A DNA stretch of 45,859 bases from a virus (IMGVR_UViG_2718218168_000002), one strand, 5' to 3'. Counted from the first letter of the stretch, positions 1 through 44,851 are shown. Made by a program: numbers and translations. Notes: generated from the sequence alone by a model not told the origin.

Positions 1-1248
1 ATGGCACTGAATATTCCATTCAGAAATGCGTACTATCGTTTTGCATCCAGTTACTCATTTCTCTTTTTTATTTCCTGGTCGCTGTGGTGGTCGTTATACG
101 CTATTTGGCTGAAAGGACATCTAGGGTTGACAGGGACGGAATTAGGTACACTTTATTCGGTCAACCAGTTTACCAGCATTCTATTTATGATGTTCTACGG
201 CATCGTTCAGGATAAACTCGGTCTGAAGAAACCGCTCATCTGGTGTATGAGTTTCATCCTGGTCTTGACCGGACCGTTTATGATTTACGTTTATGAACCG
301 TTACTGCAAAGCAATTTTTCTGTAGGTCTAATTCTGGGGGCGCTATTTTTTGGCTTGGGGTATCTGGCGGGATGCGGTTTGCTTGATAGCTTCACCGAAA
401 AAATGGCGCGAAATTTTCATTTCGAATATGGAACAGCGCGCGCCTGGGGATCTTTTGGCTATGCTATTGGCGCGTTCTTTGCCGGCATATTTTTTAGTAT
501 CAGTCCCCATATCAACTTCTGGTTGGTCTCGCTATTTGGCGCTGTATTTATGATGATCAACATGCGTTTTAAAGATAAGGATCACCAGTGCGTAGCGGCA
601 GATGCGGGAGGGGTAAAAAAAGAGGATTTTATCGCAGTTTTCAAGGATCGAAACTTCTGGGTTTTCGTCATATTTATTGTGGGGACGTGGTCTTTCTATA
701 ACATTTTTGATCAACAACTTTTTCCTGTCTTTTATGCAGGTTTATTCGAATCACACGATGTAGGAACGCGCCTGTATGGTTATCTCAACTCATTCCAGGT
801 GGTACTCGAAGCGCTGTGCATGGCGATTATTCCTTTCTTTGTGAATCGGGTAGGGCCAAAAAATGCATTACTTATCGGAGTTGTGATTATGGCGTTGCGT
901 ATCCTTTCCTGCGCGCTGTTCGTTAACCCCTGGATTATTTCATTAGTGAAGTTGTTACATGCCATTGAGGTTCCACTTTGTGTCATATCCGTCTTCAAAT
1001 ACAGCGTGGCAAACTTTGATAAGCGCCTGTCGTCGACGATCTTTCTGATTGGTTTTCAAATTGCCAGTTCGCTTGGGATTGTGCTGCTTTCAACGCCGAC
1101 TGGGATACTCTTTGACCACGCAGGCTACCAGACAGTTTTCTTCGCAATTTCGGGTATTGTCTGCCTGATGTTGCTATTTGGCATTTTCTTCTTGAGTAAA
1201 AAACGCGAGCAAATAGTTATGGAAACGCCTGTACCTTCAGCAATATAG
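1..1248 (+). CDS. cscB: Sucrose:H+ symporter, LacY-family MFS permease
   Basis: 415-aa ORF with a 12-TM-like hydrophobic profile; N-terminus MALNIPFRNAYYRFASSYSFLFF recalled as E. coli CscB / oligosaccharide:H+ symporter family. Not database-verified. Confidence 0.8.
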   Translation: MALNIPFRNAYYRFASSYSFLFFISWSLWWSLYAIWLKGHLGLTGTELGTLYSVNQFTSILFMMFYGIVQDKLGLKKPLIWCMSFILVLTGPFMIYVYEPLLQSNFSVGLILGALFFGLGYLAGCGLLDSFTEKMARNFHFEYGTARAWGSFGYAIGAFFAGIFFSISPHINFWLVSLFGAVFMMINMRFKDKDHQCVAADAGGVKKEDFIAVFKDRNFWVFVIFIVGTWSFYNIFDQQLFPVFYAGLFESHDVGTRLYGYLNSFQVVLEALCMAIIPFFVNRVGPKNALLIGVVIMALRILSCALFVNPWIISLVKLLHAIEVPLCVISVFKYSVANFDKRLSSTIFLIGFQIASSLGIVLLSTPTGILFDHAGYQTVFFAISGIVCLMLLFGIFFLSKKREQIVMETPVPSAI

Positions 1249-1777: not shown

Positions 1778-1978
1778 TTACTCATTGGCGCGGCTTAAGA
1801 GCTTATTTTTGAATTCACAATGGTCACGATATAACCATCTTGCTCGCCCGTGGATAACTTTGGCTTTAGGCAGGTCGCCGGACTTAATCCGGTCATAGAT
1901 GAAGGTTTTACCGAAGCCAGTATCGGCCATGATGAATTTCAAATCAACCAGTGAATCAGGCTGTAGTTCGTGTTGCAT
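1778..1978 (-). CDS. torI: Excisionase / recombination directionality factor TorI (AlpA-like)
   Basis: 66-aa ORF MQHELQPDSLVDLKFIMADTGFGK..., recalled as KplE1 TorI; sits at the prophage end opposite the integrase. Confidence 0.75.
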   Translation of the reverse strand: MQHELQPDSLVDLKFIMADTGFGKTFIYDRIKSGDLPKAKVIHGRARWLYRDHCEFKNKLLSRANE

Positions 1979-4126: not shown

Positions 4127-4178
4127 TGGTTGCCCCCTGCTTTTCTGCCTTCAACACCATGTGCGAACCATCATCCAG

Positions 4179-4367
4179 CTACCACGCGATCTCACCACCT
4201 TCAGCCATAACCAGTCGCCACACCAATTGAGCAGCCTCATTGGTAACATCACGACCTGGATCATTGCCAACGCGCATACGCCCACCTTCAACATCGCGCA
4301 TTTTTGCCAGCATGATAGTTTTTGATAGCGGTGAAAAACCAAGCTGTAGTCGTGCTGAATTACTCAC
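4179..4367 (-). CDS. Small hypothetical ORF
   Basis: 62-aa ORF in a head-to-tail chain of small leftward ORFs; no recognisable motif. Confidence 0.3.
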
Positions 4368-4549
4368 TGGTTGCCTCCTTTGCGCAACATCGCATTCAGA
4401 TATTTGTTTTTATTCACTGATGGAAAAGAATTTCTCTTAAGCAATTCCTCTCTCGATGGCATTGGCTTTACGCGTTGGCGAATAATCATTTCTGCCGGAA
4501 GAATGCCGGGATTGTATGCAAGTCCTCTCATGGTAAATTCCTCAGTCAT
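4364..4549 (-). CDS. Small hypothetical ORF
   Basis: Internal-start version of track ORF 4364..4564; start ambiguous. Confidence 0.3.
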
Positions 4550-4838
4550 TACTGATAGCGCCATAGCGTGAGCGGTAATTACGCAGGCGCGGGTCGATAT
4601 ATTCAGGGAATTTGTCTATTGTCGCTTTTCGCAACGGTCGCATTGCTGTTTCGTTTGTTCGGTCCCTCTCATCTTTTAACGCGAGCTGTATATCGCGTCG
4701 GTACATCCGTTCTGCTTTTGTTTCTGGTGTCAGGGCAATAAACGTGTCGAAATTGTTTTTGATATTTTCCAGCACCTCCGCCTTGGAGCTACCGGAGCAG
4801 TTGCGCGGGTCATCCGCACCATACAGAGGCGCTGGCAT
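4542..4838 (-). CDS. Hypothetical phage protein
   Basis: 98-aa ORF in the leftward operon, immediately downstream of the DUF669-like gene. Confidence 0.4.
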
Positions 4839-4861
4839 AATGGGAGCCTTATTTTCAGTAA

Positions 4862-5449
4862 TCAGAAAGGAGGGTAATCGTTCTGGCTGTAACCATAATC
4901 ATCTGCATGATTCTGGATTACGTTTTTAGAGCGATTGTCTTTATCTTTGAGACTGGCAACCATGTTGGCGATAGTTTCTGGTTGCTTGCCTTCCGCCTTT
5001 TCTTTAAGGGTTTGACCAGTTTGTGCAATAAACGGGATGCGTATTTCCATCTGGTAGCTGTCTGCGCCAGTCTTTTTGTTTGTGGTTAATACTTTCTGGA
5101 GCACCAACCCGATTTTCTTTCCATGAAATTCAGGTGCAACAAATTTACTGACGGAAATCATATGTTGCGTTAACTGCCCAATCCCGGCACACCCCATCAT
5201 GGCGTGAACGACATTTGCGCCAAATTTGTTTTCCGTTCCGTCATTTTTCTGAACGCAGACGCTAAGATATTGGATTTTACGTCCGTCGTCGGATTCGCCA
5301 GAAAACTCAATAAATTTGGCTCCTTTTTCTGATTGCTTTAGTTCTGCTTCAGTAATGGTAATGATATGAGCGCCAGTTTCGTTAATAAAACCACCTTGCC
5401 CTGCTGTCAGTGCTGCTTCTTCGTTATAAGTAAAAATCACGTTGCTCAT
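4862..5449 (-). CDS. DUF669-like ssDNA-binding protein with SSB-like acidic C-terminal tip
   Basis: 195-aa ORF ending in DYPPF (compare the SSB DDDIPF tip); overlaps the upstream ATPase gene by 4 nt, the usual Sak4/DUF669 pairing. Confidence 0.5.
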   Translation of the reverse strand: MSNVIFTYNEEAALTAGQGGFINETGAHIITITEAELKQSEKGAKFIEFSGESDDGRKIQYLSVCVQKNDGTENKFGANVVHAMMGCAGIGQLTQHMISVSKFVAPEFHGKKIGLVLQKVLTTNKKTGADSYQMEIRIPFIAQTGQTLKEKAEGKQPETIANMVASLKDKDNRSKNVIQNHADDYGYSQNDYPPF

Positions 5450-6126
5450 GCGGCGTTTTCCTTAATTTGATGAACATTATTGATGCCGTAGTAATCACAA
5501 ACAGTGGCATCGACAAAAGAGAGATCGTTATCAATCTCATTGGAATCAAACATTCCCATTGGGGATTTAACAGTGTCTGCACCGTTGTTTTTCGTGGTGA
5601 AAAAGAACTGGTCATCACGGGTAAGGGTGCGAAGAACTATAGTAAACATGCCTTCGACAGTGATTTTCTCGTCCAGCATTTTGCCGATAGTTTTCATTTT
5701 CACGCGCCCCATAGGGGTTTCTTCTGTGTGCGCAAGAAAATAGACTCTCAGGTCATCAGGTGCATCCTGTGCAGCCTTAATCACCTCCCATGCGTGGCGG
5801 CCTATCTCAGTAAATTTATCAAACGATTTTTCTTCTGAGCGGCGCATAAACTCATTGCTCATCACATACTGGAAGTCATCAACAATAACGATTCTTTTCC
5901 CGTATTCGTGAGCACGCTTAATTACGGCAACTATTACGTCCCATTTGTCAGTGGTAACTACGGTTCCTTTTTTTGCTCTGGCATCCCATGCCAGCCATTC
6001 TTTTGATTTAAAAGGTAGCGGCTTGCCTATTGGTTTTATAAGTATTGCTTCCTCTGGATTGATATTTCTCATGCTGGTTGATTTTCCGGTGCCAGATTCA
6101 CCGAGTATTAATGTCGCAGTTCCCAT
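5446..6126 (-). CDS. Sak4-like AAA_24 ATPase (phage recombination)
   Basis: 226-aa ORF with N-terminal Walker A GESGTGKST and a Walker B-like IVIVDD; occupies the position of lambda Red. Confidence 0.6.
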   Translation of the reverse strand: MGTATLILGESGTGKSTSMRNINPEEAILIKPIGKPLPFKSKEWLAWDARAKKGTVVTTDKWDVIVAVIKRAHEYGKRIVIVDDFQYVMSNEFMRRSEEKSFDKFTEIGRHAWEVIKAAQDAPDDLRVYFLAHTEETPMGRVKMKTIGKMLDEKITVEGMFTIVLRTLTRDDQFFFTTKNNGADTVKSPMGMFDSNEIDNDLSFVDATVCDYYGINNVHQIKENAA

Positions 6127-6134: not shown

Positions 6135-6335
6135 TCAGAATGGTAATTCGGATGGGACGGAAAGAAATTCGCGCTCATTCATGCGCTCTCTTTGAGCCTG
6201 CCATAAACAAAGTTGTTTCTTTGATTTATCTCCCGCTTTACGCCAGTAACGAGCCTCAGCAATGTGATATTCTCTTTTTAATCGACTTAATTCTGGAGTT
6301 TTCGCCAGTTCTACCGGAATCATTTTGACCTCCAT
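6135..6335 (-). CDS. Hypothetical phage protein
   Basis: 66-aa ORF directly downstream of kil; overlaps the kil end by 16 nt. Confidence 0.35.
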   Translation of the reverse strand: MEVKMIPVELAKTPELSRLKREYHIAEARYWRKAGDKSKKQLCLWQAQRERMNEREFLSVPSELPF

Positions 6336-6433
6336 TTTCTGTAGGCTTCGATGGCCTCACGAAACATCTTTTCATCGCCAATAAAAGTGGCGATAGTGAA
6401 TTTAGTCTGGATAGCCATAAGTGTTTTATCCAT
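6320..6433 (-). CDS. kil: Kil-like host-killing protein
   Basis: 37-aa product MDKTLMAIQTKFTIATFIGDEKMFREAIEAYRKW from the internal ATG of track ORF 6320..6559; recalled as lambda Kil-like; directly follows cIII as in lambda. Confidence 0.5.
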   Translation of the reverse strand: MDKTLMAIQTKFTIATFIGDEKMFREAIEAYRKWRSK

Positions 6434-6566
6434 TTTTGGGAACTCCTGGCTGATTAAGTACGTCGATGAGTCGTTTCCATCCGTCACGTAATTTGCGGGT
6501 GATTCGTTCAAGTAAAGATTCGGAAGGGCAGCCAGCAACAGGCCACCCTGCAATGGCATATTGCAT
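6426..6566 (-). CDS. cIII: CIII-like protease inhibitor
   Basis: 46-aa ORF below the track cutoff: MQYAIAGWPVAGCPSESLLERITRKLRDGWKRLIDVLNQPGVPKNG, matching recalled lambda CIII; AAGGAG Shine-Dalgarno upstream. Confidence 0.65.
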   Translation of the reverse strand: MQYAIAGWPVAGCPSESLLERITRKLRDGWKRLIDVLNQPGVPKNG

Positions 6567-6645: not shown

Positions 6646-6894
6646 CTACTCTATTTCTTCTTCGAATGATTTTATTAGCCGGTCAATAACATCATCTGTT
6701 TCAATATCATTTCCGTCTGATTGCTTTAATACGTCTATTGATTCTGCTGCGGTAAATTCCATCGCTGTGAGAAACTCGACAATTGCACACTCAACGACAT
6801 GTCGTTCTTCATCTGTACGACATGAGATAAAAGAGCATTTAATTGCTGTTATTACTTTTTGTTTAAGTTCTGCAGGATAATCAGTTTTTATCAT
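6646..6894 (-). CDS. Hypothetical phage protein
   Basis: 82-aa acidic ORF in the pL operon, with GGAG before the ATG. Confidence 0.45.
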   Translation of the reverse strand: MIKTDYPAELKQKVITAIKCSFISCRTDEERHVVECAIVEFLTAMEFTAAESIDVLKQSDGNDIETDDVIDRLIKSFEEEIE

Positions 6895-7439: not shown

Positions 7440-7745
7440 TCAATCGTAATAAGCTGGAATTGATTTTCCGCGTTGCTTCTGGCGGCCTGAGCATGTCACA
7501 CCCATTTCACTGCGTGGCTTGCGGTAGTAAATGCGATTCTGTTTACTCTCGACTTCTTCTGCCTTCTTGCAGCGAAGGCTTCCGAGTGATGCTGCTTTAT
7601 CTGCTCTGACGCAACCAGAGAGCTTTAGCGCAATTTTTCGTGCCAGTCGCTGCTCTTGCATTGCCTGTTCACGTTGAGCCTGTCTGCGTGCTCTGCGGCG
7701 ATTTCTGGCGTTATCGTCAGCCAGATATGTAATGACTACTGTCAT
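7440..7745 (-). CDS. N: N-like transcription antitermination protein
   Basis: 101-aa basic ORF with an arginine-rich N-terminal motif (ARNRRRARRQAQRE) and C-terminus GVTCSGRQKQRGKSIPAYYD resembling lambda N; first gene downstream of pL. Confidence 0.7.
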   Translation of the reverse strand: MTVVITYLADDNARNRRRARRQAQREQAMQEQRLARKIALKLSGCVRADKAASLGSLRCKKAEEVESKQNRIYYRKPRSEMGVTCSGRQKQRGKSIPAYYD

Positions 7746-7940: not shown

Positions 7941-8003
7941 GTATCACCGCTAGTGGTATGCGTGTCAACACCGCCAGAGATAATTTATCACCGCAGATGG
8001 TTA
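7941..8003 (-). promoter_or_regulatory. pL promoter with oL1-oL3 operators (lambda-type)
   Basis: Minus strand TTGACA (7964-7969), 17-nt spacer, GATACT (7941-7946); operator-like 17-mers tatcaccgctagtggta, caacaccgccagagata and tatcaccgcagatggtt. Confidence 0.8.
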
Positions 8004-8191: not shown

Positions 8192-9064
8192 TTATTTAAT
8201 TTCTTTTTCCGGTAAATACATTGTCATTTGAACAGGTTTCTTTCCATAGTGTTGAGCAACTCGACTTCTTAGCTCATGCATGGTGTCGCATGTTTTTGCG
8301 ACCCCAATAACCTCCCAGCACCTTGATACAAGCTGCCTTACACCTAGGTTCTCGGTTAACTGTCTATGCCAGTGAACTCCTGCCGCAGGCTTGTTTTCTT
8401 TAAGATATTTAGCCACATCTTCGTCAAGAGTGTCATAAATTAACTCTATAACTAATTTCCCCCACCATTTGGGCCTTGATTGCAATGGGGTACTCCATCC
8501 TGTCAATCTACCAAATTCTTCCCATAACTCATCAGGAAATGTTTTTTCCCATGCTCTTAGTTCCTCAGCGATGAACGCCCTGAGTTTTACTTGGAGAGCA
8601 TCCTCTGCGCGCTCATACTGATACCCAGTAGCCTCATCAATTAGAGCATCTAACCCAGTCCTGGTTAAACCTGCTGTTAATACAGCACATTTAATTGCTA
8701 TTTCTCGCTGTCTATCTGTCAATGGCGCGCCTTTGTATAGCGCCTGTACATAGCCGCGACAAATCAATTCAAATTGCTCAGTCTTAAGTCCTTGGCTTTT
8801 AAATTGGGTTCCTGGTATGGAAAACTCTATGAGTTCGGCCAGGACTAAGTCTTTGTCTATAAAGCCATTAAGTGAGCTAACGCCAATAAATTTAGCCAGG
8901 TCTCCTGACTCCGCATTGGCAATTGCTTTTACAGTTGCTCGCAAAGCTATAACACGATGTCCAGTGTCAAGCACATAGCAATCAATACTTTCACCACCTA
9001 AGTCGATCTTCCCCTTCCATTTTGCGAATGGGGATGGTAATTGCTGTAAATCATCATGTTCCAT
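8192..9064 (-). CDS. Uncharacterised cargo protein in the rexAB slot of the immunity operon
   Basis: 290-aa product from the internal ATG (MEHDDLQQLPSPFAKWKGK...) 32 nt after the cI stop; the full track ORF 8192..9160 would overlap cI by 65 nt. No similarity to RexA/RexB recalled. Confidence 0.6.
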   Translation of the reverse strand: MEHDDLQQLPSPFAKWKGKIDLGGESIDCYVLDTGHRVIALRATVKAIANAESGDLAKFIGVSSLNGFIDKDLVLAELIEFSIPGTQFKSQGLKTEQFELICRGYVQALYKGAPLTDRQREIAIKCAVLTAGLTRTGLDALIDEATGYQYERAEDALQVKLRAFIAEELRAWEKTFPDELWEEFGRLTGWSTPLQSRPKWWGKLVIELIYDTLDEDVAKYLKENKPAAGVHWHRQLTENLGVRQLVSRCWEVIGVAKTCDTMHELRSRVAQHYGKKPVQMTMYLPEKEIK

Positions 9065-9095
9065 TAATTGAATTACCCTTTTTTGCTGCGTTGAA

Positions 9096-9812
<717 letters not shown>

Positions 9813-9819: not shown

Positions 9820-9885
9820 TATCACCGCAAGGGATAAATATCTAACACCGTGCGTGTTGACTATTTTACCTCTAGCGGTGATAAT
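9820..9885. promoter_or_regulatory. oR3-oR2-oR1 operators with divergent pRM and pR
   Basis: tatcaccgcaagggata, taacaccgtgcgtgttg, tacctctagcggtgata; pR -35 TTGACT (9857-9862) and -10 GATAAT (9880-9885); AGGAGG before cro. Confidence 0.9.
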
Positions 9886-10538: not shown

Positions 10539-10682
10539 ATGCGAAAAACGCAGGAAAATAAACGCGTTAATCACCGAAAAGATGTGCTACGTGACCAGTT
10601 TTATCAGGGGGTTAATCCAGCAATAGCTGTGCCACTGAGAGAAATACTTAACAGGTACAAAACTTCGGAGAAGTCAAAATGA
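10539..10682 (+). CDS. Small basic hypothetical protein upstream of the replication initiator
   Basis: 47-aa ORF MRKTQENKRVNHRKDVLRDQFYQGVNPAIAVPLREILNRYKTSEKSK with GAGG Shine-Dalgarno; its stop overlaps the next start (ATGA). Confidence 0.4.
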   Translation: MRKTQENKRVNHRKDVLRDQFYQGVNPAIAVPLREILNRYKTSEKSK

Positions 10683-11563
10683 GCATGAATCTTATGGCTA
10701 AGGCCATGAATATAAAGGTTGGCAACCCACTGAGAAAACTGGTTCTGATTAAACTTGCCGATAACGCCAATGATAATGGCGAATGCTGGCCTTCATATCA
10801 ACATGTCGCTGACCAGTGTGAGGTGAGCAGATCGACAGTAAAAAGTCACATTAGGGCACTGGAAGAGATGGGGCTTTTGAAAAGGGAATTCAGAAGAAAA
10901 GGAGAGCTTAACCAGTCAAACGTTTTTTATCTGACGCTGGATAATGCACAACAAATCCAACCAGAATCAGGTGGGGCAGGAGCTGCCCGGGGTGGGGCAG
11001 GAGCTGCCCGGGGTGGGGCAGGAGCTGCCCGGGGTGGGGCAGGAGCTGCCCGGGGTGGGGCAGGAGCTGCCCGGGGTGGGGCAGGAGCTGCCCTAGGGGG
11101 TGGGGCAGGAGCTGCCCTAGGGGGTGGGGCAGGAGCTGCCCCCAGAACCTATCACTCTTTTGAACCAGTCAATGAACCTAAAAACATTATGTTCGAACAT
11201 GTCCGAACAGAGTGTGAAAAAACTCCTGACCGTCACGAAGAAACCGACAAGGCATTCGAGGAAATATTCTGGTGTGCAGGAATGCGGAAAGCCGGGAAGA
11301 AAAACGCAGCTTCGGCATTCAGAACACAGTTCAGGGAATGGCGTAAAACTACCAGGGGTACGGCAAGCGAGTTTGCCACGATGCTGGCAGAAGACATCGC
11401 ATGCAGGAATGGTAAGCAGTTCGGATTCGACAGGTTGTTACCATCGAGCTACCTGAACGGTCAACGCTGGAACGACGAGAAGCCAGAAACTATTCAACCA
11501 CAATCCAAACCATCATCCGCAATCACCGTATCGAAAACTGGCTACGTGTTTTTCGACAGGTGA
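10679..11563 (+). CDS. Replication initiator protein (winged-helix HTH N-terminus; O-like role)
   Basis: 294-aa ORF at the lambda O position; N-terminal HTH-like segment (SYQHVADQCEVSRSTVKSHIRALEEMGLLKR); internal Gly/Ala-rich linker encoded by an iteron array. Confidence 0.55.
   Translation: MSMNLMAKAMNIKVGNPLRKLVLIKLADNANDNGECWPSYQHVADQCEVSRSTVKSHIRALEEMGLLKREFRRKGELNQSNVFYLTLDNAQQIQPESGGAGAARGGAGAARGGAGAARGGAGAARGGAGAARGGAGAALGGGAGAALGGGAGAAPRTYHSFEPVNEPKNIMFEHVRTECEKTPDRHEETDKAFEEIFWCAGMRKAGKKNAASAFRTQFREWRKTTRGTASEFATMLAEDIACRNGKQFGFDRLLPSSYLNGQRWNDEKPETIQPQSKPSSAITVSKTGYVFFDR
10970..11143 (+). repeat. Tandem 21-bp iteron array inside the initiator gene (candidate origin)
   Basis: Five exact copies of ggtggggcaggagctgcccgg, then three 24-bp variants; each unit holds inverted arms gggcag/ctgccc. 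Confidence 0.6.
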
Positions 11564-13976: not shown

Positions 13977-14423
13977 ATGAAGCAAATATACATGCTTCGC
14001 AACGAAGCAATCAGAAATAACGCCATAGACGCAATACTCTCACTTCCGATCGACGACAAGTCACCTCACGAAGTCCACATTAAAGAACCCAAGCGGAGCA
14101 ATCCTCAAAACCGCCTTATGTGGGCGTTATTGCAGGACGTATCACGTCAGGTGCTTTGGCATGGACAGAGACTTGCGCCGGAGGACTGGAAAGACCTGTT
14201 TACTGCCCTGTGGCTTAAGACCAAAAAACTGGAGCAACGAAGTGTGCCTGGTATCGACGGTGGCGTTGTCATGCTTGGCGTGCGTACCAGCAAAATGCGA
14301 AAGGCCAGCATGACTGAGCTTATCGAAATCATGTTTTGGTTCGGCTCAGAGCGCAACGTGCGGTGGAGTGATGACTCCCGGCGAGAGTATGAATGGTCAC
14401 AACGAAAAGGGAAGGCTGCATGA
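13977..14423 (+). CDS. ninB: NinB (Orf-family recombination protein)
   Basis: 148-aa ORF; NPQNRLMWALLQDVSRQVLWHG and the C-terminal RNVRWSDDSRREYEW match the recalled lambda NinB pattern. Confidence 0.75.
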   Translation: MKQIYMLRNEAIRNNAIDAILSLPIDDKSPHEVHIKEPKRSNPQNRLMWALLQDVSRQVLWHGQRLAPEDWKDLFTALWLKTKKLEQRSVPGIDGGVVMLGVRTSKMRKASMTELIEIMFWFGSERNVRWSDDSRREYEWSQRKGKAA

Positions 14424-14947
14424 CTATCAAATCAAATACGCCAGCGTCAGATAGGTATCGGCTTATTGAGGATTATCTGTATTTAGACGGAGATACAGTC
14501 AGATACAAAAAGGACTCGCTAAAACACCCCAACCACAGCCACCGGGCAGGAGATGAAATTAAAACATCGATAAATGGATCTGGGTATAGACAGGTGTGTT
14601 TTGCAGGCATTCAGATGTTTGTTCACGTAGTTGTTTTTGCGCTGCACAACAAAAGAATGCCATTGAAAAATATTGACCATATTAACGGGAACAGGCTGGA
14701 CAATTCCCCAAAAAATCTTAGGGAGGCAGGCCGGATAGCAAACAGCCGAAATCAGAAAACTAAGTGCAATAGCCGTTCTGGAATAAAAAATGTTTTATGG
14801 AACAAGCAAAAAAATAAATGGGCCGTTCAAGTGCGCACAGATTTTGGCCGGTTGTATTTTGGGCTCTATGAAGATCTTGAACTTGCTTGTTTGGTTGCCA
14901 GTGAGGCTATCAACAAATATCACGGACAATATGCGAAGGTTGTATGA
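14420..14947 (+). CDS. HNH endonuclease with AP2-like DNA-binding domain
   Basis: Internal ATG (MTIKSN) of track ORF 14393..14947; HNH motif HVVVFALHNKRMPLKNIDHINGNRLDNSPKNL; overlaps the ninB stop by 4 nt. Confidence 0.65.
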   Translation: MTIKSNTPASDRYRLIEDYLYLDGDTVRYKKDSLKHPNHSHRAGDEIKTSINGSGYRQVCFAGIQMFVHVVVFALHNKRMPLKNIDHINGNRLDNSPKNLREAGRIANSRNQKTKCNSRSGIKNVLWNKQKNKWAVQVRTDFGRLYFGLYEDLELACLVASEAINKYHGQYAKVV

Positions 14948-15474
14948 TTAAGCATAAATCAGAAACACCAAAAGAAGTTAGAGACTGCTGGCAAACACCG
15001 CTTTGGCTTTTTGATGCACTGGATATTGAGTTTGGATTCTGGCTGGATTCGGCAGCGAGCGACAAAAATGCTCTGTGTGCTCACTGGCTAACTGAGGCCG
15101 ACGACGCGCTCAATTCTGAGTGGGTAAGCCACGGTGCAATCTGGAATAACCCACCGTACAGCAATATCAGGCCGTGGGTGGAAAAAGCCGCTGAGCAGTG
15201 CATACAACAGCGACAGACGGTAGTGATGCTTGTGCCAGAGGATATGTCAGTCGGATGGTTCAGCAAGGCTCTGGAGAGTGTTGACGAAGTTCGTATTATC
15301 ACTGATGGACGGATTAATTTTATCGAACCATCGACAGGGCTGGAGAAGAAGGGAAACAGCAAAGGCTCCATGCTGCTGATTTGGCGACCGTTCATCAGTC
15401 CTCGACGGATGTTTACTACCGTATCCAAAGCGGCATTGATAGCGATCGGGCAGGGCGTCAGGAGGGCTGCATGA
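14944..15474 (+). CDS. Phage Dam-family DNA N6-adenine methyltransferase
   Basis: 176-aa ORF with the catalytic NPPY motif (WNNPPYS); ATGA start/stop overlap with the HNH gene. Confidence 0.7.
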   Translation: MIKHKSETPKEVRDCWQTPLWLFDALDIEFGFWLDSAASDKNALCAHWLTEADDALNSEWVSHGAIWNNPPYSNIRPWVEKAAEQCIQQRQTVVMLVPEDMSVGWFSKALESVDEVRIITDGRINFIEPSTGLEKKGNSKGSMLLIWRPFISPRRMFTTVSKAALIAIGQGVRRAA

Positions 15475-16316
15475 TAAATGTCGTTAGTTTCTCCGGTGGC
15501 AGGACGTCAGCATATTTGCTCTGGCTAATGGAGCAAAAGCGACAGGCAGGTGAAGACGTGCATTACGTTTTCATGGATACAGGGGCAGAGCACCCTAAAA
15601 CATATGAGTTCATCCGAAATATCGTCAGTAACTGGAAAATAGACTTACATTGCCTTCGTGTAATACCTAATCCAGAAATGGGGAAGGCCAGTAGTTATGA
15701 AGAGATAGGTGTCAATGATATTGGTCCAGATCTTATACCGTGGAAAAGGATGTTAAATAAATACGGACATCCATATATCGGCGGTGCGTTCTGTACCGAC
15801 AGAATGAAGTCTGTTCCATTCACCAAATATTGTCAGGAAAAGTTTGGGAAAGGAAATTACATCACATGGCTTGGCATTCGCACAGATGAACCAAACAGGC
15901 TTAAAAGGGCTAATGGTTTTCGGTACCTGGCTGATATAAGCGATTTTGAAAAACAGGATGTGCTTGATTGGTGGAGTGGGCAGAAGTTTGATCTTGGCAT
16001 ACAGGAGCATCTTGGTAATTGTGTTTTCTGTATAAAAAAAAGTATGCAAAAGGTTGCGCTGGCAGCCATGGATGAGCCAGAACTTGCAGATGCATTTATC
16101 AACATCCTTGATACAGAAATAAAAACAGGAAAGGAACCGGTTATGTATCGAGGGAATAATACACTTAAATCACTGATTGCCTTGTTTAGTGATATATCAA
16201 GAGATGAGTTAGCCTCAAGAATGACATCAATGCGACAGTATGATTCAGGTTCGTGTTCTGAATCATGTGAAGCATTTTCATGTCAGCTTGGATTTAATTT
16301 TGAGGATGCGGCATGA
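15471..16316 (+). CDS. PAPS-reductase-like PP-loop ATPase family protein
   Basis: Internal ATG after AGGAGG; PP-loop motif [12 protein letters not shown]; C-terminal Cys clusters; 4-nt overlap with the methyltransferase gene. Confidence 0.65.
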
Positions 16317-18247: not shown

Positions 18248-18537
18248 TGGCTAACCTACGCAAAGAAGCGCGCAACAGAGAATGCCAGGTACGTATTTAC
18301 GGCGTATGCAATGGTAATCCTGAAACTACAGTTCTGGCACATTACCGGATGGCTGGAATTTGCGGAACGGGAATGAAGCCTGACGACCTGATCGGTGCAT
18401 GGGCTTGTAGTGACTGCCACGCGGAGATCGACCGACGCACCCATAATCTCGACAACAAAGACGCCAGACTTTACCACCTCGAAGGCGTGATCAGGACGCA
18501 GGCGATACTGCTGAAGGAGGGGAAGATTAAGTCATGA
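18247..18537 (+). CDS. YbcO-like DUF1364 protein (putative nuclease)
   Basis: 96-aa ORF with a conserved Cys/His pattern (CQVRIYGVCNGNPETTVLAH...CSDCHAEIDRRTH), recalled as similar to DLP12 YbcO. Confidence 0.65.
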   Translation: MANLRKEARNRECQVRIYGVCNGNPETTVLAHYRMAGICGTGMKPDDLIGAWACSDCHAEIDRRTHNLDNKDARLYHLEGVIRTQAILLKEGKIKS

Positions 18538-18896
18538 ACGAATATCAGTTTGTGCTTCCATACCCGCCGTCGGTGAACACCTACTGGCGAAGACGGGGAA
18601 GCCAATACTACATCAGCGATAAAGGCCAGAAATACCGAAAAGACGTTCAGCAAATCATCCGCCAACTCAAGTTAGATATTTTCACCAAATCACGACTCCG
18701 CATCAAAGTCATCGCAGACGTTCCAGACTCCCGCCGCCGCGACCTCGATAACATCCTGAAAGGTTTACTCGACTCCCTTATCCACGCCGGATTTGCGGAA
18801 GACGACGAGCAATTCGATGACATTCGCGTAATTCGTGGTGTGAAAGTACCTGGCGGACGGCTTGGAATAAAAATCACCGAACTGGAGAGCGTATGA
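18534..18896 (+). CDS. rusA: Holliday-junction resolvase RusA
   Basis: 120-aa ORF with the RusA signature (VNTYWRRRG..., DSRRRDLDNILKGLLDSL, GGRLGIKITELE). Confidence 0.85.
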   Translation: MNEYQFVLPYPPSVNTYWRRRGSQYYISDKGQKYRKDVQQIIRQLKLDIFTKSRLRIKVIADVPDSRRRDLDNILKGLLDSLIHAGFAEDDEQFDDIRVIRGVKVPGGRLGIKITELESV

Positions 18897-21341: not shown

Positions 21342-21492
21342 ATGTCCGCAGTAAACCGCGCATTCTCGTGCGCATATCAACCAAGAGCTTTTCGGGATAT
21401 GAGACAGAGACAGGATGGTGGCTTACATCGTGCCGCTCTTGGGCTGTCCATGTCTGCGAGAACTGGCTCATATCACCAAAAAGGTAAATACG

Positions 21493-22221
21493 ATGTCCAA
21501 TATCATCCCGATTGATTTCGAAGGCCATCCCATGCGTTTTTCTGACGATGGCTGGTTTGACGCGACTGCGGCAGCTGACAAGTTCAACAAGGAGCCGGCT
21601 CAGTGGCTTAGGCTTCCTGAGACTGTCCGTTACATCGAGGCGTTAAAGAGTAGATATGGGAATATCACATATGTAAAAACCAGCCGCGCTCGCAAAGACC
21701 GTGGCGGCGGAACATGGCTTCACCCAAAACTGGCGGTCAGATTTGCTCGATGGCTTTCTGTAGATTTTGAGATCTGGTGTGATGAGCAAATTGACGCAAT
21801 CATTCAGGGTTCCGTTCATCATATCGACGATGAAAGAATAAAGGCTATTTTCCTTCTGGATAAATCTCAGCCATGGGAAAAGAGGTTTAGCGATCCGTTT
21901 TATTCTGCGATGTTCAAAATGTCAGGGCTGCCCCGTCATCGACCAGGTCGTCGCCCCGCACTATTTGGGATGATCAGTGCCAAGTGGGTATATGGCCCGG
22001 TATTACCACCAGAAGTATATGCAGAGGTTAAAAGACGGCTGGCTGCGGGAGACAAAATCCATCAGCACCTTAAACCTGACGCGCTGACATTGGTTGAGCG
22101 ACAGATCATTGCCGTTACCAGCATTGCCAATGGGTGCTCTGATTATCGTGATTTCGAAGCGCGTTGCATGTCGGCATTCCCGGTGAAAGGGCAGATGAAA
22201 TTGCTCTATGCGGCGGCCTGA
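21493..22221 (+). CDS. KilA-N domain protein
   Basis: Internal ATG (MSNIIPIDFEGHPMRF...) after AAGGTAAA; KilA-N-like core (GTWLHPKLAVRFARWL). Confidence 0.55.
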   Translation: MSNIIPIDFEGHPMRFSDDGWFDATAAADKFNKEPAQWLRLPETVRYIEALKSRYGNITYVKTSRARKDRGGGTWLHPKLAVRFARWLSVDFEIWCDEQIDAIIQGSVHHIDDERIKAIFLLDKSQPWEKRFSDPFYSAMFKMSGLPRHRPGRRPALFGMISAKWVYGPVLPPEVYAEVKRRLAAGDKIHQHLKPDALTLVERQIIAVTSIANGCSDYRDFEARCMSAFPVKGQMKLLYAAA

Positions 22222-23332: not shown

Positions 23333-24955
23333 ATGCCGTTACCATTCCCCTTCGATTTTAAACATCCTGATTACCAGATGGTTTTTGAATGGCGGATGGA
23401 GCGCTTACAGCGCATTCGCCAGAACCCTGAAATGCTGCCAGCGCTTAAGCAGTTTTATCGCACCAACCCGGCCCAGTTCATTATCGACTGGGGCATGACG
23501 ACAGACCCGCGCAACATTGATTATGGCCTGCCGGTCACCATCCCTTTTCTGCTGTTCCCGAAACAGGAAGAGTGGATTCACTGGATCATGGAGCGGCGCG
23601 AAAAGCTGGAGAACGGCATTACCGAAAAGAGCCGTGAAATGGGGCTCAGCTGGACGGCGATCGGGCTGGCCTGCTCGCTCTGCCTCTTCAACAAAGAGAT
23701 GGTTATCGGCTTCGGCTCCCGTAAAGAGGAATACGTCGACAGTACCGGTGACCCGAAGGCGCTGTTCTGGAAGGCGCGAAAGTTCGTGGAAACACTGCCC
23801 ATTGAGTTTCGTGGTTCGTGGGACGAGAAGAAGCATGCGCCGTATATGCGCGTTGAGTTTCCAGATACTGGCGCGGTTATCAAAGGCGAGGCTGGCGACA
23901 ATATCGGACGTGGTGACCGTACCACGCTCTACCTGGTGGATGAAGCTGCATTCCTCCAGCGTCCTCTGTTGATTGATGCGGCGCTGTCGCAAACCACCCG
24001 TTGCCGTATTGACCTGAGCTCGGTTAATGGCATGGCGAACCCGTTCGCGCAGAAGCGCCACGGCGGAAAGATACCAGTATTCACGTTCCACTGGCGAGAT
24101 GACCCGCGCAAGGATGAAGAGTGGTATCGCAGGGAGTGCGAGAAAATCGACAATCCGGTGGTGGTGGCGCAGGAACTTGACCTGAACTACAGCGCATCTG
24201 CGGAAGGCGTCCTGATCCCGTCCGACTGGGTACAGGCTGCCGTCGACGCGCATATCAAACTTGGTATTCAGCCAACGGGCAAGCGACTGGGCGCGATGGA
24301 CGTCGCCGACGAAGGCCGGGACAAAAATGCCTTTTCGACCCGTCACGGCTTCCTTCTGGAGAACGTGCGTGAATGGTCCGGCGTTGGCAGCGACATTTAC
24401 CAGTCTGTTGAGAAGGTCTTCGGCTTTTGCGAACAGGACAACCTCGAAGAGTTTCGCTTCGACGAGGACGGCCTGGGTGCTGGCGTTCGCGGCGATGCGC
24501 GCGCCATCAACGAACTGCGTTACGCAGCGCGCCGACCGTCAATACTCGCCACACCGTTTCGTGGTAGCGGCGCGGTATTTGATCCGGACGATGAAGCGGT
24601 GCGCGGGGACAACGGACAGGCCGCACGCCTGAACAAGGACTTCTTCGCCAACGCCAAGGCCCAGAGCTGGTGGTGGCTACGCAAGCTTTTCCAGAACACC
24701 TATCGCGCCGTGGTTGAGGGCATGGCCTACAACCCGGACGAAATCATCTCAATCAGCAGCGCCATGGCGAGCAAAGACAAACTCATCATTGAGCTGTCGC
24801 AGCCGACCTACTCCATTAATGGCGTGGGGAAAATCGTTGTTGATAAACAGCCTGATGGAACCCGGTCGCCAAACCTTGCCGACTCGGTGATGATCAGCTA
24901 CGCGCCAATGAATTCAGCCCTGAACATCTGGGAGCTGCTAGGGAGACAGGCCTGA
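23333..24955 (+). CDS. Terminase large subunit
   Basis: 540-aa ORF between TerS and portal; Walker B-like LYLVDEAAF; an acidic C-terminal half is consistent with a nuclease domain. Confidence 0.65.
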
Positions 24956-26421
24956 TGGCACGAAACAAACAAGCCACGCGGCGAACGGCACAGGCCACCG
25001 CTGATGGCTATGAGAACTTTGTTGCCCGCGTGGGGATGCAGACACCTAACCAGCACTCAGCATCCACCTACCGGGCTAATTTCACCAGTCGTAACCGCAT
25101 GCTGGTGGAATGGTCCTATCGTTCGTCCTGGATTATCGGCGAAGCAGTCGATGCTATCCCGGATGATATGACCCGCAAAGGCATTCGCATCACTTCGGAA
25201 ATTGATGCAAAAGATCGTGGCATTCTCGAATCACAACTGGATGAGTTGCAAATCTGGGATGCGCTGAATGACGTGCTGAAATGGTCGCGCCTCTACGGCG
25301 GCGCGGTGGGTTTCATCATGATTGAGGGGCAGGCACCAATGACCCCGCTGCGACCCGAAACCATCGGTAAGGGCAAGTTTAAGGGGATTCTCCCGCTCGA
25401 CCGCTGGATGATTGACCCGGTACTGACCCGCCGCATTAAAGATATGGGGCCGGACCTGGGTAAACCTGAGTTTTACGATGTGGTGACCACAGCAACGGGA
25501 ATTCCTGCCTGGCGCATTCATCACAGTCGACTGATTCGCTTTGATGGCGTCACGCTGCCATTTCAGCAGAAGATGACCGAGAACGAATGGGGAATGTCGG
25601 TTGTAGAGCGTATCTGGGATCGTCTTACCGCGTTCGACAGCGCTACTGTCGGCGCGGCGCAGCTGGTCTACAAAGCGCATTTGCGCACCTACAGCGTGGA
25701 GAAGCTACGCGAGCTTATCGCACTTGGTGGTCCTGCGTATGAAGCGTTGCTGAAGAATATTGACCTGATTCGACAGTTCCAGAGCAATGAAGGCATGACG
25801 CTCATGGACTCGCGGGATAAGTTTGAAACTCATCAGTACAGCTTCAGTGGTCTGGATGACATCCTTTCACAGTTTGCAGAACAGATTAGTGGCGCTGTTG
25901 GTATCCCACTGGTGCGGCTGTTTGGACAGTCCCCGAAAGGATTTTCTACCGGTGATGCAGACCTTGCCAACTATTACGACCGCATCAGTTCGTTGCAGGA
26001 GAGGCGTTTACGTCTTCCGGTGCGGCGGATACTGGACATCATGCATCGTTCGGAACTTGGCAAGCCGCTCCCGGATGATTTCACGTTTGAGTTTAACCCG
26101 CTCTGGCAAATGTCTGATGTCGATCGCTCAACGGTGGCGTTAAACACCACCAACGCAATCAGTACGGCGCTGGGTGATGGTCTGATGACACTGAAAGCCG
26201 CTATGACCGATTTGCGCGAAAATTCTGACGTAACCGGCATCGGGGCATCCATTACCGACGAGGACATAGAGAATGCCGAAGACGAAGCGCCGCCCGGCAT
26301 CGGCGAACCTGATGACGAACCGCAGGAACCGTCAGGCGGAAATCCGCTATCGAACCAGCCTACGCAGGATAGCGCGGGCGGTCGGAGACATCGTAAATGG
26401 TCGCTACGATGGTTCAAATGA
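24955..26421 (+). CDS. Portal protein (candidate)
   Basis: 488-aa ORF whose start overlaps the TerL stop (tgATG); position between terminase and Mu-F-like gene; acidic C-terminal tail. Confidence 0.6.
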   Translation: MARNKQATRRTAQATADGYENFVARVGMQTPNQHSASTYRANFTSRNRMLVEWSYRSSWIIGEAVDAIPDDMTRKGIRITSEIDAKDRGILESQLDELQIWDALNDVLKWSRLYGGAVGFIMIEGQAPMTPLRPETIGKGKFKGILPLDRWMIDPVLTRRIKDMGPDLGKPEFYDVVTTATGIPAWRIHHSRLIRFDGVTLPFQQKMTENEWGMSVVERIWDRLTAFDSATVGAAQLVYKAHLRTYSVEKLRELIALGGPAYEALLKNIDLIRQFQSNEGMTLMDSRDKFETHQYSFSGLDDILSQFAEQISGAVGIPLVRLFGQSPKGFSTGDADLANYYDRISSLQERRLRLPVRRILDIMHRSELGKPLPDDFTFEFNPLWQMSDVDRSTVALNTTNAISTALGDGLMTLKAAMTDLRENSDVTGIGASITDEDIENAEDEAPPGIGEPDDEPQEPSGGNPLSNQPTQDSAGGRRHRKWSLRWFK

Positions 26422-27046
26422 CAGTATCACGGAAATTATTGAGGCGCTGGAACGCTACAGTGAAATCATCACCCCCTGGGCGACAAAGGTCGCGGAAAAC
26501 TTTACCGCCGATATTGTGCGCAAGAATGATGAGCAGTGGCGTAAACACAGCAAAACCATCAGCCGTGAGCTACGCAATCTGGTAAACAGTGCCCCGCCAG
26601 GGCAGGTGATGAAATCCATCGTTGCTGAACAGGTTAAGTACATTAAATCGCTACCCCTCGAGGCGGCTGACAGGGTGTACGACATCCAGAATCGGGCGAT
26701 TGAAGCTGTTGTGACCGGTGGGAGAGCGGAACATTTTGCTAAAGAAATAGCCGCATCGGGTGATATAGCAAAGTCCAGAGCTGACCTGATTGCCCGTACT
26801 GAACTTGGACGTGCAACCGGCGCGCTGGATCAGGCGCGTGCGCTGGCAATTGGTTCGAATGGTTATATCTGGCGTACAGCCGAAGATGGTGACGTCAGGC
26901 ATTCTCATCGGGAAATGGAAGGTAAATTTGTCGAATGGGGCAAACCTCCAACGCTTGATGGCATGACCGGTCACGCTGGCGAGCTCCCGAATTGTCGCTG
27001 TTATAAAGAAATCGTTTTTCCCACCTCCCATTCTTATCCCGCCTGA
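26273..27046 (+). CDS. Head morphogenesis protein (Mu F / SPP1 gp7 family)
   Basis: C-terminal Mu-F-like motifs (RTELGRATG, DGDVRHSHREMEGKF, ELPNCRCY); start uncertain, as the track ORF overlaps the portal by about 150 nt. Confidence 0.65.
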   Translation: MPKTKRRPASANLMTNRRNRQAEIRYRTSLRRIARAVGDIVNGRYDGSNDSITEIIEALERYSEIITPWATKVAENFTADIVRKNDEQWRKHSKTISRELRNLVNSAPPGQVMKSIVAEQVKYIKSLPLEAADRVYDIQNRAIEAVVTGGRAEHFAKEIAASGDIAKSRADLIARTELGRATGALDQARALAIGSNGYIWRTAEDGDVRHSHREMEGKFVEWGKPPTLDGMTGHAGELPNCRCYKEIVFPTSHSYPA

Positions 27047-27060
27047 ATCGCAGGTAACAC

Positions 27061-28281
27061 ATGAAATATTTTTTCAATACCCGGCTGGGGGAAACCCGCT
27101 ATCAGCTGGCTGACGGCTCGTTGCTGTGCAAAGACGTGCCGATAGGACGAACAGGTAAGCAGCTCTATGGTGCTGATGACCTGCCAAAACTGAAACCCGA
27201 TAAGTTCGGTGAAATAGTCGTCACGCGTTCTCCTGAGCAGGTATTCCATCCCGCCACGCTTGCCTCATTCGAAGGAATGAGTATCACGGTGTTGCATCCC
27301 GAGGATGAAAACGGGGATGTGCGGCTGGTGAATCCAGAGAACTGGAAAGAGCTCGCGGTCGGGCATCTTCAGAATGTCCGGCGCGGGACGGGTGTGCAGT
27401 CTGATTTGATGCTGGCTGACCTTATCGTCAAAGACGAAAACGCCATTCAGCTGATCGAAGATGGCCTGCGCGAAGTGTCGTGTGGCTATGACGCGGAATA
27501 TAAGCAGACTGAGCCGGGTAAGGCTGAGCAGGTTGATATTACCGGAAACCATGTGGCTCTTGTCCCTAAAGGCAGAGCCGGAAATCGTTGTGCAATTGGA
27601 GACAGAGACACAATGGCAAATCAAAAGAAAAGCTGGTGGACCCGCATGCGCACGGCCATCAAAACGGGTGACGCTGACACCATGAACGAACTGGTGGAGT
27701 CGGCTCCCGCATCGGTTACAGGAGATGAGGGGGATTTGCCGCAGGGCGTTAATCTCAACATCAACCTGTCCCCGCAGCAACCGCTACCGGACAAAGCACC
27801 AGAGATGGGCGGAGGTCCAACGGGCGACAGTGATGATGACCTCAAAACATTACTGAAAGCCCTGCTGGCTAAGCTGGAAGGAAATGCGACGGGCGATAAC
27901 GACAATAAGCCTGACGATAATCCGACCGGTGACGGCGAGGACGATGAAGAGGAAACCACGATTACTGGTGACTCAGCCTGGCGTGCCGAAGTTATCGTTC
28001 CGGGTATTGATCTGAGCCGTAAGATGAAACCGACCGCGTTCAAACGTGAGGTTCTGGCTTCTGCTGACAAAACGCTGGTTCGCCAGATAGTCGGTGATGC
28101 GGATATCCGCAAATTGCCGAAACAATCAGTCGACATGGCGTTTAATGCCGTGTCTGAGATTGCCAAAGGGCGAAACACCCGCGCCACCACCGGCGATGCA
28201 CAGCGCCCAAATATGGGCATGACCAGTATCGCTTCCCTGAACAAACAAAACGCTGAATTCTGGGCAAACCGTAAAGGGTAA
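27061..28281 (+). CDS. Head scaffold/protease-like protein (DUF2213-like)
   Basis: 406-aa ORF between Mu-F-like and capsid genes; acidic low-complexity central region typical of scaffolds. Confidence 0.5.
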   Translation: MKYFFNTRLGETRYQLADGSLLCKDVPIGRTGKQLYGADDLPKLKPDKFGEIVVTRSPEQVFHPATLASFEGMSITVLHPEDENGDVRLVNPENWKELAVGHLQNVRRGTGVQSDLMLADLIVKDENAIQLIEDGLREVSCGYDAEYKQTEPGKAEQVDITGNHVALVPKGRAGNRCAIGDRDTMANQKKSWWTRMRTAIKTGDADTMNELVESAPASVTGDEGDLPQGVNLNINLSPQQPLPDKAPEMGGGPTGDSDDDLKTLLKALLAKLEGNATGDNDNKPDDNPTGDGEDDEEETTITGDSAWRAEVIVPGIDLSRKMKPTAFKREVLASADKTLVRQIVGDADIRKLPKQSVDMAFNAVSEIAKGRNTRATTGDAQRPNMGMTSIASLNKQNAEFWANRKG

Positions 28282-28284
28282 AAA

Positions 28285-28791
28285 ATGAATAATGTATTTC
28301 TGTACCGGATGCCTGTTGGCATTGCCGGGGCTGTCTCTCGTCCGCAGGACTTAACCGTCGAACCGGTGGTCCTTAAATCCGATAACGCCTTTGCTGCCTA
28401 TGGGCTGGCTGGTAAATACGATGATGACGGTTTTTTCGTGCCGCTGGCAGATGGTGATACCGCAGACAAGGTGAAGGGGATCTATGTGCGCCCTTATCCG
28501 ACCACTTCGCAGCCGGACATGGTTCGCCAGGTGGGGAGTGGCAAGAACTTCCCTGGCGACGCCATGAAGCGTGGCTACGTGACCGTTAATCTCGGTTCTG
28601 ATTTTGATGCCAGCACCATCAAAAAAGGCGACCCGGTATACGTTGTCGTCTCCACTGATGAATCCATCAAAGTGCCGCTGGGTGGATTCATGTCCACGTC
28701 AGTCAGTGGCAAAAATGTGGTGCTGACCAACGCTGAATTCACAGGTGCCGGTGATGCTGACGGCAATGCAGAAATTTCCTGGAAGATTTAA
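28285..28791 (+). CDS. Head structural protein (decoration-like; hypothetical)
   Basis: 168-aa ORF immediately upstream of the major capsid gene; position-based. Confidence 0.4.
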   Translation: MNNVFLYRMPVGIAGAVSRPQDLTVEPVVLKSDNAFAAYGLAGKYDDDGFFVPLADGDTADKVKGIYVRPYPTTSQPDMVRQVGSGKNFPGDAMKRGYVTVNLGSDFDASTIKKGDPVYVVVSTDESIKVPLGGFMSTSVSGKNVVLTNAEFTGAGDADGNAEISWKI

Positions 28792-44775: not shown

Positions 44776-44851
44776 ATGGTGTCCCCTGCAGGAATCGAAC
44801 CTGCAATTAGCCCTTAGGAGGGGCTCGTTATATCCATTTAACTAAGAGGAC
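44776..44851 (-). tRNA. argW: tRNA-Arg (anticodon CCU)
   Basis: Minus-strand cloverleaf: acceptor GTCCTCT/AGGGGAC, D stem GTTA/TAAC, anticodon stem AGCCC/GGGCT with loop CTCCTAA, T arm GCAGG-TTCGATT-CCTGC, discriminator A, CCA. Confidence 0.9.

Follow-up and report, generated by a model that had tools for sequence, protein, structure and literature searches.

Organization of the locus

The stretch of DNA analyzed here (the window; 45,859 nucleotides) holds a whole prophage of ~43 kb. All genes from the leftward promoter pL down to ~2587 lie on the minus strand. The genes and sites considered below are given in the pL direction, followed by two accessory genes of the pR operon:

7942..8002, minus strand: lambda-type operators OL1-OL3, overlapping pL; matches to the lambda operator consensus
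7440..7745, minus strand: antiterminator resembling N, encoded first in the pL operon; phrog_271, E 5.4e-36
6646..6894: gene matching the PHROG 'anti-restriction protein' family, between N and cIII
6426..6566, minus strand: cIII, 46 aa; Pfam Lambda_CIII, E 3.1e-30; 100% identical to HK620 cIII
6320..6433, minus strand: kil, 37 aa according to the HK620 annotation; the ORF reaches up to 6559
6135..6335, minus strand: hkaM, small protein; 62 aa if started at ATG 6323, as in the HK620 annotation, or 66 aa for the full ORF
5446..6126, minus strand: sak4 (hkaL), 226 aa; assigned by identity to HK620 HkaL, phrog_2872 and Pfam AAA_24
6079..6102, minus strand: Walker A motif (P-loop) GESGTGKS, Sak4 residues 9-16, located by regular expression on the translation
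5875..5892, minus strand: Walker B motif IVIVDD, Sak4 residues 79-84
4862..5449, minus strand: ssb (hkaK; SSB_HK620 or 'SSB-2'), 195 aa; predicted OB-fold ssDNA-binding protein and cognate partner of Sak4
4865..4882, minus strand: C-terminal tip NDYPPF of the SSB, putative Sak4-recruitment motif, the same as the HK620 tip
4542..4838, minus strand: abc2, final gene of the Rec module; anti-RecBCD protein 2, which would hijack RecBCD
13977..14423, plus strand: NinB/Orf recombination mediator (accessory, pR operon); phrog_72, E 2.7e-60
18534..18896, plus strand: accessory gene of the pR operon for the Holliday-junction resolvase Rus, which shares 98% identity with its HK620 counterpart

The three operators deviate from the lambda consensus by 0, 2 and 2 mismatches, respectively, and a TTGACA -35 element is present. 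Across the window, five matches to the lambda operator were found, compared to 0.28 expected, the remaining two being the OR sites at 9820-9883. Over 67 aa, the N-like protein shares 94% of its residues with HK620 N. Kil is 100% identical to HK620 Kil, and the reading frame 6320..6559 matches Pfam Lambda_Kil with an E of 6.4e-21. HkaM, which is the first gene product of the Rec module, is likewise 100% identical to its HK620 counterpart over 62 aa (phrog_1723, E 4.5e-33). The order of the module in the pL direction is cIII–kil–hkaM–sak4–ssb–abc2.

The original prediction, made from the nucleotide sequence, had placed a Walker-A ATPase and a second, overlapping gene in a pL operon with lambda-like kil and cIII genes, at the site where lambda carries its Red genes. 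The setting proved correct in each of these respects, and both reading frames were recovered on the minus strand. The stop codon of sak4 and the start codon of ssb share the four nucleotides ATGA (GCATGAGC, 5446..5449). This overlap, which also appears in the HK620 annotation at 5065..5068, suggests coupled translation of sak4 and ssb. The prediction had also held exo, bet and gam to be absent. When the three lambda proteins were compared with the whole 45.9-kb window by tblastn, Exo gave no match at E<=1, and the best matches of Bet and Gam had E values of 0.45 and 0.59, respectively. Hence, the statement that Red is missing from the window is correct.

The ATPase belongs to the Sak4 family

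The product of ORF 5446..6126 is identical to HK620 HkaL (Sak4) in all of its residues (226/226 aa, 100%). Comparison with the PHROG profiles assigned residues 1-220 to phrog_2872, 'Sak4-like ssDNA annealing protein' (E 3e-108). The match to Pfam AAA_24 that the original prediction expected was obtained, with 30 bits at a gathering cut-off of 27; AAA_22 scored 27 bits, and both of these scores are marginal. In an alignment of relatives that are 50-55% identical to Sak4, the Walker A residues G9, E10, S11, G12, G14 and K15 are invariant, as are D83 and D84 of Walker B. Both motifs lie within a protein of 226 aa that lacks extra domains, as expected of the family, with its length of ~220 aa. Judged from its sequence, the ATPase is a member of the Sak4 family, and would thus be an ATP-dependent single-strand annealing protein that consists of the RecA core only.

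Structural searches added little to this assignment. A phmmer search of the PDB with Sak4 found nothing, and a profile built from five sequences retrieved from the PDB only artefacts from designed TIM-barrel repeats together with matches to FleQ and NtrC that were limited to Walker A. The AlphaFold model calculated from the single sequence was too poor for use (pLDDT 44.8). The sole hints of such a fold were matches to the NCBIfam models FlaH and ArlH, both below threshold (E 0.06-0.08). One source for a RecA/RadB-like fold of Sak4 is reportedly the work of Lopes in 2010. Here, the fold is a claim taken from the literature, namely from Hutinet 2018 (PMC5928155). Sak4 has the Walker A/B P-loop core and the ATP-dependent binding of ssDNA in common with RecA/Rad51 paralogues such as archaeal RadB, but compared to RecA it lacks the C-terminal domain and performs no strand exchange (PMC5928155).

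The partner protein is a predicted SSB with a conserved tip

The 195-aa protein encoded by the second gene is identical to HK620 HkaK at 191 of 195 positions (98%), and none of the four substitutions falls within the last 17 residues. It matches phrog_743, 'single strand DNA binding protein', with an E of 2.6e-65. Given the two PHROG matches and an AAA_24 score above cut-off, sak4 and ssb are real genes and not chance ORFs. The SSB_HK620 or 'SSB-2' family (PHROG 743) comprises 669 clusters at 50% identity (E<=1e-3). The window SSB does not match the Pfam SSB family (PF00436), and it has no detectable sequence homology to bacterial SSB, the tail alone being alignable. When the SSB profile was compared with the PDB, the alignments with bacterial SSBs were confined to the C-terminal tail and were not significant (E 2.3-5.7). 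The AlphaFold model of the SSB consists of a core with an OB-like fold and a disordered tail, residues 177-195 including the tip having a pLDDT <50. Its structural neighbours are OB-fold SSBs; PrgE of plasmid pCF10 (PDB 8s4s; PMC11137577) was grouped with these proteins for comparison.

The protein terminates with ...GYSQNDYPPF and so carries the SSB-like DYPPF tip that had been predicted. In 36 relatives, the final residue is always F. Within the family, 253 of 326 full-length members end with F and 183/326 with PF, while exactly DDDIPF, the tip of E. coli SSB, ends 62/326. Within the last 12 positions of the family members (n = 326), the mean number of acidic residues is 3.3 and that of basic residues 0.17. 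The sequence data support the assignment of the 195-aa protein as the cognate SSB of Sak4 with an SSB-like interaction tip.

One label did not hold. The second protein had been described as DUF669-like, but the window SSB found no match to the current Pfam-A family DUF669 (PF05037) even at E<=10, an outcome that formally counts against the prediction on its own terms. Weak, sub-threshold matches to DUF669 were obtained with 8 of 36 close relatives of the SSB (best E 0.0052) and with one of 65 distant representatives (E 0.0066), and DUF669 was the most frequent weak match. A profile search with the SSB family covered 5.8 billion proteins; in each of the homologue searches, none of the best 120 matches listed had a precomputed Pfam domain. 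None of the four module proteins matched an NCBIfam model at the NCBIfam thresholds. The name DUF669 is used for the family by Hutinet et al. (PMC5928155) as well as in NCBI and UniRef records. A remote relationship between the SSB and DUF669 is plausible from these weak matches. We read the name as a remote or historical assignment, and the miss in Pfam as a reflection of model coverage. For the function of the SSB the label has no bearing, since ssDNA binding has been shown directly for the HK620 protein.

The HK620 pair anneals single-stranded DNA

Both proteins of the HK620 pair, HkaL (Sak4) and HkaK (SSB_HK620), were purified by Hutinet et al. 2018 (PMC5928155). Sak4 required ATP for ssDNA binding and for the annealing of complementary strands; it performed no strand exchange and did not stimulate RecA (PMC5928155). 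SSB_HK620 behaved as an apparent tetramer and formed two sequential complexes with ssDNA, like E. coli SSB, with an affinity for ssDNA ~4-fold below that of the E. coli protein (PMC5928155). On its own SSB_HK620 does not anneal DNA, but annealing by Sak4 is strongly enhanced in its presence (PMC5928155). A Gp2.5-type or self-annealing SSB was ruled out on this ground. When the last six residues, NDYPPF, were deleted, the SSB became inhibitory and Sak4 was kept off SSB-coated ssDNA (PMC5928155). The possible SSB-partner interaction motif of the original prediction is identical to this HK620 tip, whose removal abolishes the stimulation of Sak4.

The recombineering assay that had been proposed for the two genes has also been done already, on the identical or nearly identical HK620 pair. 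In a recA mutS host, oligo recombineering rose 15-fold over background with sak4 alone, and ~210-fold with sak4 and ssb or with the whole four-gene module; loss of NDYPPF from the SSB reduced recombineering 10-fold (PMC5928155). At some loci, Sak4 and SSB remained below lambda Red (PMC5928155). No gain in oligo recombineering was obtained from abc2, and hkaM was dispensable (PMC5928155). Since neither gene aided oligo recombineering, the part they play in the module rests on P22 genetics. An adjacent cognate ssb is reported for ~80% of sak4 genes. A survey from 2025, which covered 325 lambdoid phages, counts the HK620 arrangement among the standard types of Rec module and names HkaK 'SSB-2' (PMC12315714).

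Abc2 and the boundary of the module

The last gene of the module, abc2, gave a clear match to Pfam Anti-RecBCD_p2 (PF11043; 123.7 bits at a cut-off of 25, E 3.6e-36). Residues 1-98 of the protein cover profile positions 1-97, that is the full length, and phrog_656 was matched with an E of 1.9e-44. Abc2 is 96% identical to the protein of phage JEP4, but only 62% identical in amino acid sequence to HK620 Abc2 (HkaJ), and the identity to P22-like alleles is also only 62%. Abc2 being a different allele, a mosaic joint lies just downstream of ssb. By analogy, Abc2 may be regarded as the functional counterpart of Gam/Exo. Since the allele is only 62% identical to those of HK620 and of P22-like phages, the RecBCD-hijacking activity of the window Abc2 is assumed.

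The gene order hkaM–hkaL–hkaK–hkaJ of HK620 (AF335538), the gene lengths, the ATGA overlap and the NDYPPF tip are the same as in the window, and at the nucleotide level ssb, sak4, hkaM, kil and cIII are 97-100% identical. The two modules are carried by different phages: the prophage of the window combines lambda-type immunity and primase-helicase replication with a contractile (myovirus) tail, whereas HK620 is a podovirus. P22 has the same four-gene layout, arf–erf–abc1–abc2, which also closes with abc2, and the Abc2 family (PF11043) is common to both. Compared to P22, Sak4 replaces the Rad52-like Erf and the SSB replaces Abc1; HkaM is unrelated to Arf (PMC5928155).

Like lambda Red, the module follows cIII and kil in the pL operon and has the overall task of end resection and single-strand annealing, and both Red and Sak4 with SSB support oligo recombineering. 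A sequence relationship between the two does not exist. The annealase Sak4 is an ATP-dependent RecA-core protein that needs the phage SSB, in contrast to the Rad52-like ring of lambda Red (PMC5928155). Furthermore, the phage of the window brings no nuclease of its own, and its Abc2 would hijack RecBCD, which lambda Gam blocks (PMC5928155; PMC12315714).

A Rec module of the HK620 type

Taken as a whole, the locus very probably represents a homologous-recombination ('Rec') module of the HK620 type in a lambdoid prophage, which is transcribed to the left from pL, behind N, cIII and kil. The central claim of the original prediction, a Sak4-like ATPase and a dedicated SSB in the position of Red, is borne out by the 100% and 98% identity to the HK620 proteins. 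A different annealing module does indeed stand in for Red. However, it extends beyond two genes, hkaM and abc2 having been overlooked, and it is of the P22/HK620 type rather than novel: the module and its layout are already characterized.

From the properties of the HK620 proteins, the SSB, as an apparent tetramer, would coat ssDNA, and the NDYPPF tip of the DNA-bound SSB would recruit ATP-bound Sak4. Sak4 would then anneal complementary SSB-coated strands, allowing oligo recombineering independent of RecA. By family membership and P22 genetics, Abc2 would bind host RecBCD and thereby turn it to the resection that Exo and Gam together provide in lambda. RecBCD altered by Abc2 may supply the 3' ssDNA that is used by SSB and Sak4. 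The gene content of the window suggests that NinB/Orf and Rus may complete the pathway downstream. As with other lambdoid Rec modules, the system would serve recombination-dependent late replication, mend the ends of phage DNA and allow mosaic exchange with other phages.

It could be argued that the pair serves mainly the replication of phage DNA, by fork restart, in the theta-to-sigma switch or in recombination-dependent replication, and that annealing and recombineering are by-products rather than the function under selection. Any SSB is inherently a replication factor, the phage has its own primase-helicase and an O-like initiator, and genes of Rec modules are implicated in the rolling-circle switch of lambda (PMC12315714). 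In addition, crossover recombination by the HK620 pair is only weak (PMC5928155). We nevertheless consider a mainly replicative role rather doubtful. The activity that has been demonstrated is annealing, and ssb sits beside abc2 in the pL Rec module, not among the replication genes of pR. Moreover, a replicative role overlaps with a role in recombination and does not exclude it.

The tail of the SSB might, alternatively, recruit mainly host proteins, such as RecO, PriA, exonuclease I and the chi subunit of pol III, with Sak4 as one client among several. The frequency of DDDIPF (62/326) and PF (183/326) ends in the family would fit such a function, as would the bacterial SSB tails, the sole, though not significant, PDB sequence match of the SSB profile. 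The HK620 study further reports that SSB_HK620 stimulates RecA-mediated strand exchange (PMC5928155). However, the tip in the window is the diverged NDYPPF, not DDDIPF, and its loss specifically blocks the loading of Sak4 onto SSB-coated ssDNA (PMC5928155), which makes a primarily host-directed tail unlikely.

The carrier is an E. coli prophage in a host chromosome. The window contains, at 1..1248, a gene for a cscB-like permease, and a 15-bp att core (TGGTGTCCCCTGCAG) near 1690 is repeated at the 3' end of a tRNA-Arg(CCT) gene (44777..44851). An intact HK620-type integrase (98% identical) is located at the right end of the prophage, and the left end has an excisionase-like gene; the layout of the integrase follows from HK620 attP sitting just beyond int. 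When the whole window was compared with 5,426 complete E. coli genomes, no full-length match was found, the best coverage being 56%. Given the chromosomal location and lambda-type repression by cI, the module could be silent cargo of a defective prophage with no current function. This is highly improbable: none of the module's ORFs is disrupted, their identity to the ORFs of a viable phage is 98-100%, and both att cores, the integrase, the excisionase-like gene and a complete set of replication, lysis and myovirus morphogenesis genes are present. A defective remnant was ruled out, as ORFs and att sites are intact. It is scarcely credible that the ATPase is a generic AAA/P-loop protein, for example a helicase loader or packaging factor, next to an unrelated protein with a coincidental DYPPF end, as the marginal AAA_24/AAA_22 scores, the lack of a Pfam or NCBIfam match for the 195-aa protein and the public labels 'ATP-binding protein' and 'hypothetical protein' might suggest, because both proteins are identical or near-identical to the characterized HK620 pair (PMC5928155), which rules out a generic AAA ATPase or helicase loader, and the tail motif is family-wide.

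One further feature was recorded. Nine Chi sites are present in the window, all on the plus strand and in the late region (24666-39403), compared to 1.28 expected. Lambdoid phages that are Rec+ and anti-RecBCD+ are reported to be Chi-depleted (PMC12315714).

Distribution of the module and variation of the tip

At least a part of the 2.1-kb region is matched by 343 phage records, many Stx1a- and Stx2a-converting phages among them, and 64 records cover >=80% of it. Among the 5,426 complete E. coli genomes, 179 contain the region at >=80% coverage. Of 80 loci from IMG/VR, 70 have sak4 immediately upstream of ssb. The search for related loci with the SSB alignment yielded only relatives of >=87% identity. 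Consequently, distant synteny was judged from four individual contigs, comprising a Neisseria assembly and metagenomic contigs. The adjacency of sak4 and ssb was conserved in all of them (4/4); the SSB is only 28-42% identical there, while Sak4 is 50-55% identical with invariant Walker A/B motifs.

The tip of the SSB varies with the genes upstream. All 73 IMG/VR loci with sak4 upstream have the tip N[DN]YP[PAS]F, whereas the tip is YG[GS]D[NS]F in 7/7 loci in which a Bet/RecT-like annealase and a lambda-Exo-like nuclease are encoded upstream; the core of the SSB is 87-88% identical. The host-type DDDIPF is kept by more distant members of the family. It is possible, and we put it forward as a tentative idea, that the last six or so residues of the SSB form an exchangeable cassette that determines partner specificity. 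The evidence comes essentially from two lineages, and therefore a single historical event or a fast drift of the disordered tail could account for the pattern too. If the tip alone sets which recombinase or host SSB client is loaded, a swap of tips should re-wire the specificity for the annealase. In the 2025 survey of lambdoid Rec modules, the 'shuffling of partner interaction domains' was explicitly left unanalyzed (PMC12315714).

The module of the window changes nothing in the current understanding of the Sak4–SSB module. Its value lies mainly in annotation, as public records list a characterized recombinase–SSB pair as 'ATP-binding protein', 'DNA binding ATPase', 'DUF669 domain-containing protein' or 'hypothetical protein'. 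Many Shiga-toxin-converting phages also have the pair, and in these phage recombination drives mosaicism. The pair constitutes an alternative, RecA-independent system for recombineering.

The C-terminal tip of the SSB varies with the partner recombinase

In seven IMG/VR loci that encode a related SSB but lack sak4 (L077-L083; for example L077, 2294-4588), the SSB core is 87-88% identical to that of the window (4862-5449). There, sak4 is replaced by two genes ahead of the SSB, one for a Bet/RecT-like annealase of 339 aa and the other for a lambda-Exo-like nuclease with 88% identity to lambda Exo. In these seven loci the SSB tip, i.e., the last residues of the protein, reads YG[GS]D[NS]F, whereas N[DN]YP[PAS]F is found in the 73 IMG/VR loci with sak4. 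Partner recombinase and SSB tip co-vary.

In all four distant sak4–ssb loci (L084-L087, at ~4160-4960 in each), a gene for a Sipho_Gp157 (PF05565) protein of 166-195 aa follows ssb, immediately in each case except L085, where it is next but one, and it occupies the position held by abc2 in the window. The Sipho_Gp157 protein would be a different, uncharacterised third partner of sak4–ssb outside the enterobacterial lambdoids.

The abc2 gene of the window (4542-4838, minus strand) shares 62% amino acid and 74.5% nucleotide identity with HK620 abc2; in the flanking genes (ssb, sak4, hkaM, kil and cIII), nucleotide identity to HK620 amounts to 97-100%. Relative to the HK620 allele the middle of Abc2 is replaced, while its N- and C-terminal ends are conserved. 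A mosaic joint is therefore placed just downstream of ssb. HkaM (6135-6335, minus strand; 62-66 aa) is labelled 'recombinase' in PHROG 1723, but was described by Hutinet et al. (PMC5928155) as an orphan of unknown function, recombineering being possible without it. The label is probably a mis-annotation inherited from 'arf'.

Integration site and gene content of the prophage

The window holds a complete ~43-kb prophage integrated at tRNA-Arg(CCT) and bounded by two copies of the 15-bp att core TGGTGTCCCCTGCAG, one near 1690 and one at the 3' end of the tRNA gene (44777-44851). Its left flank and terminal genes are:

1-1248, cscB-like sugar permease
1778-1978, minus strand, excisionase-like gene
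43461-44615, minus strand, integrase

The integrase and excisionase-like genes thus lie at opposite ends of the prophage, a layout consistent with HK620, in which attP lies just beyond int.

The prophage shares an HK620-like integrase, Rec module and rus with HK620, and its immunity is lambda-like. However, HK620 is a podovirus, whereas the structural genes of the window (22776-43137, plus strand) are of the contractile-tail (myovirus) type, including a tail sheath (31849-32994, plus strand) with baseplate hub, wedge and tail fibres in the same region. Among the 5,426 complete E. coli genomes in the collection, the highest coverage of the window's first 25 kb was 56%.

Directly downstream of the lambda-type cI, and overlapping it, lies a gene for a 322-aa P63C-domain protein (8192-9160, minus strand; Pfam 2.7e-22; phrog_2384), where lambda carries rexA/rexB. 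It may be an exclusion or defence gene expressed from the prophage. A second protein (21415-22221) matches phrog_2384 more weakly.

The O-like replication initiator (10679-11563, plus strand) contains ~8 tandem repeats at ~10980-11130, translated as GGAGAAR/GGGAGAAL, which by analogy with lambda O probably mark an iteron-bearing origin within the gene. Three nin-region genes overlap successively (14393-16316, plus strand):

14393-14947, plus strand, HNH endonuclease
14944-15474, plus strand, DNA methyltransferase
15381-16316, plus strand, PAPS-reductase-like protein

Chi sites are confined to the late region

A scan of the whole window for Chi (GCTGGTGG) revealed nine sites (24666-39403), all on the plus strand and all in the late/structural region; the early region and both host flanks contain no Chi. 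Shuffled sequences gave an expectation of 1.28 ± 1.05 sites (maximum 5). Over the ~43-kb prophage the density is one Chi per 4.8 kb, approximately the host level. As a candidate explanation, the Chi-bearing late module could have originated in a Rec-less lineage.
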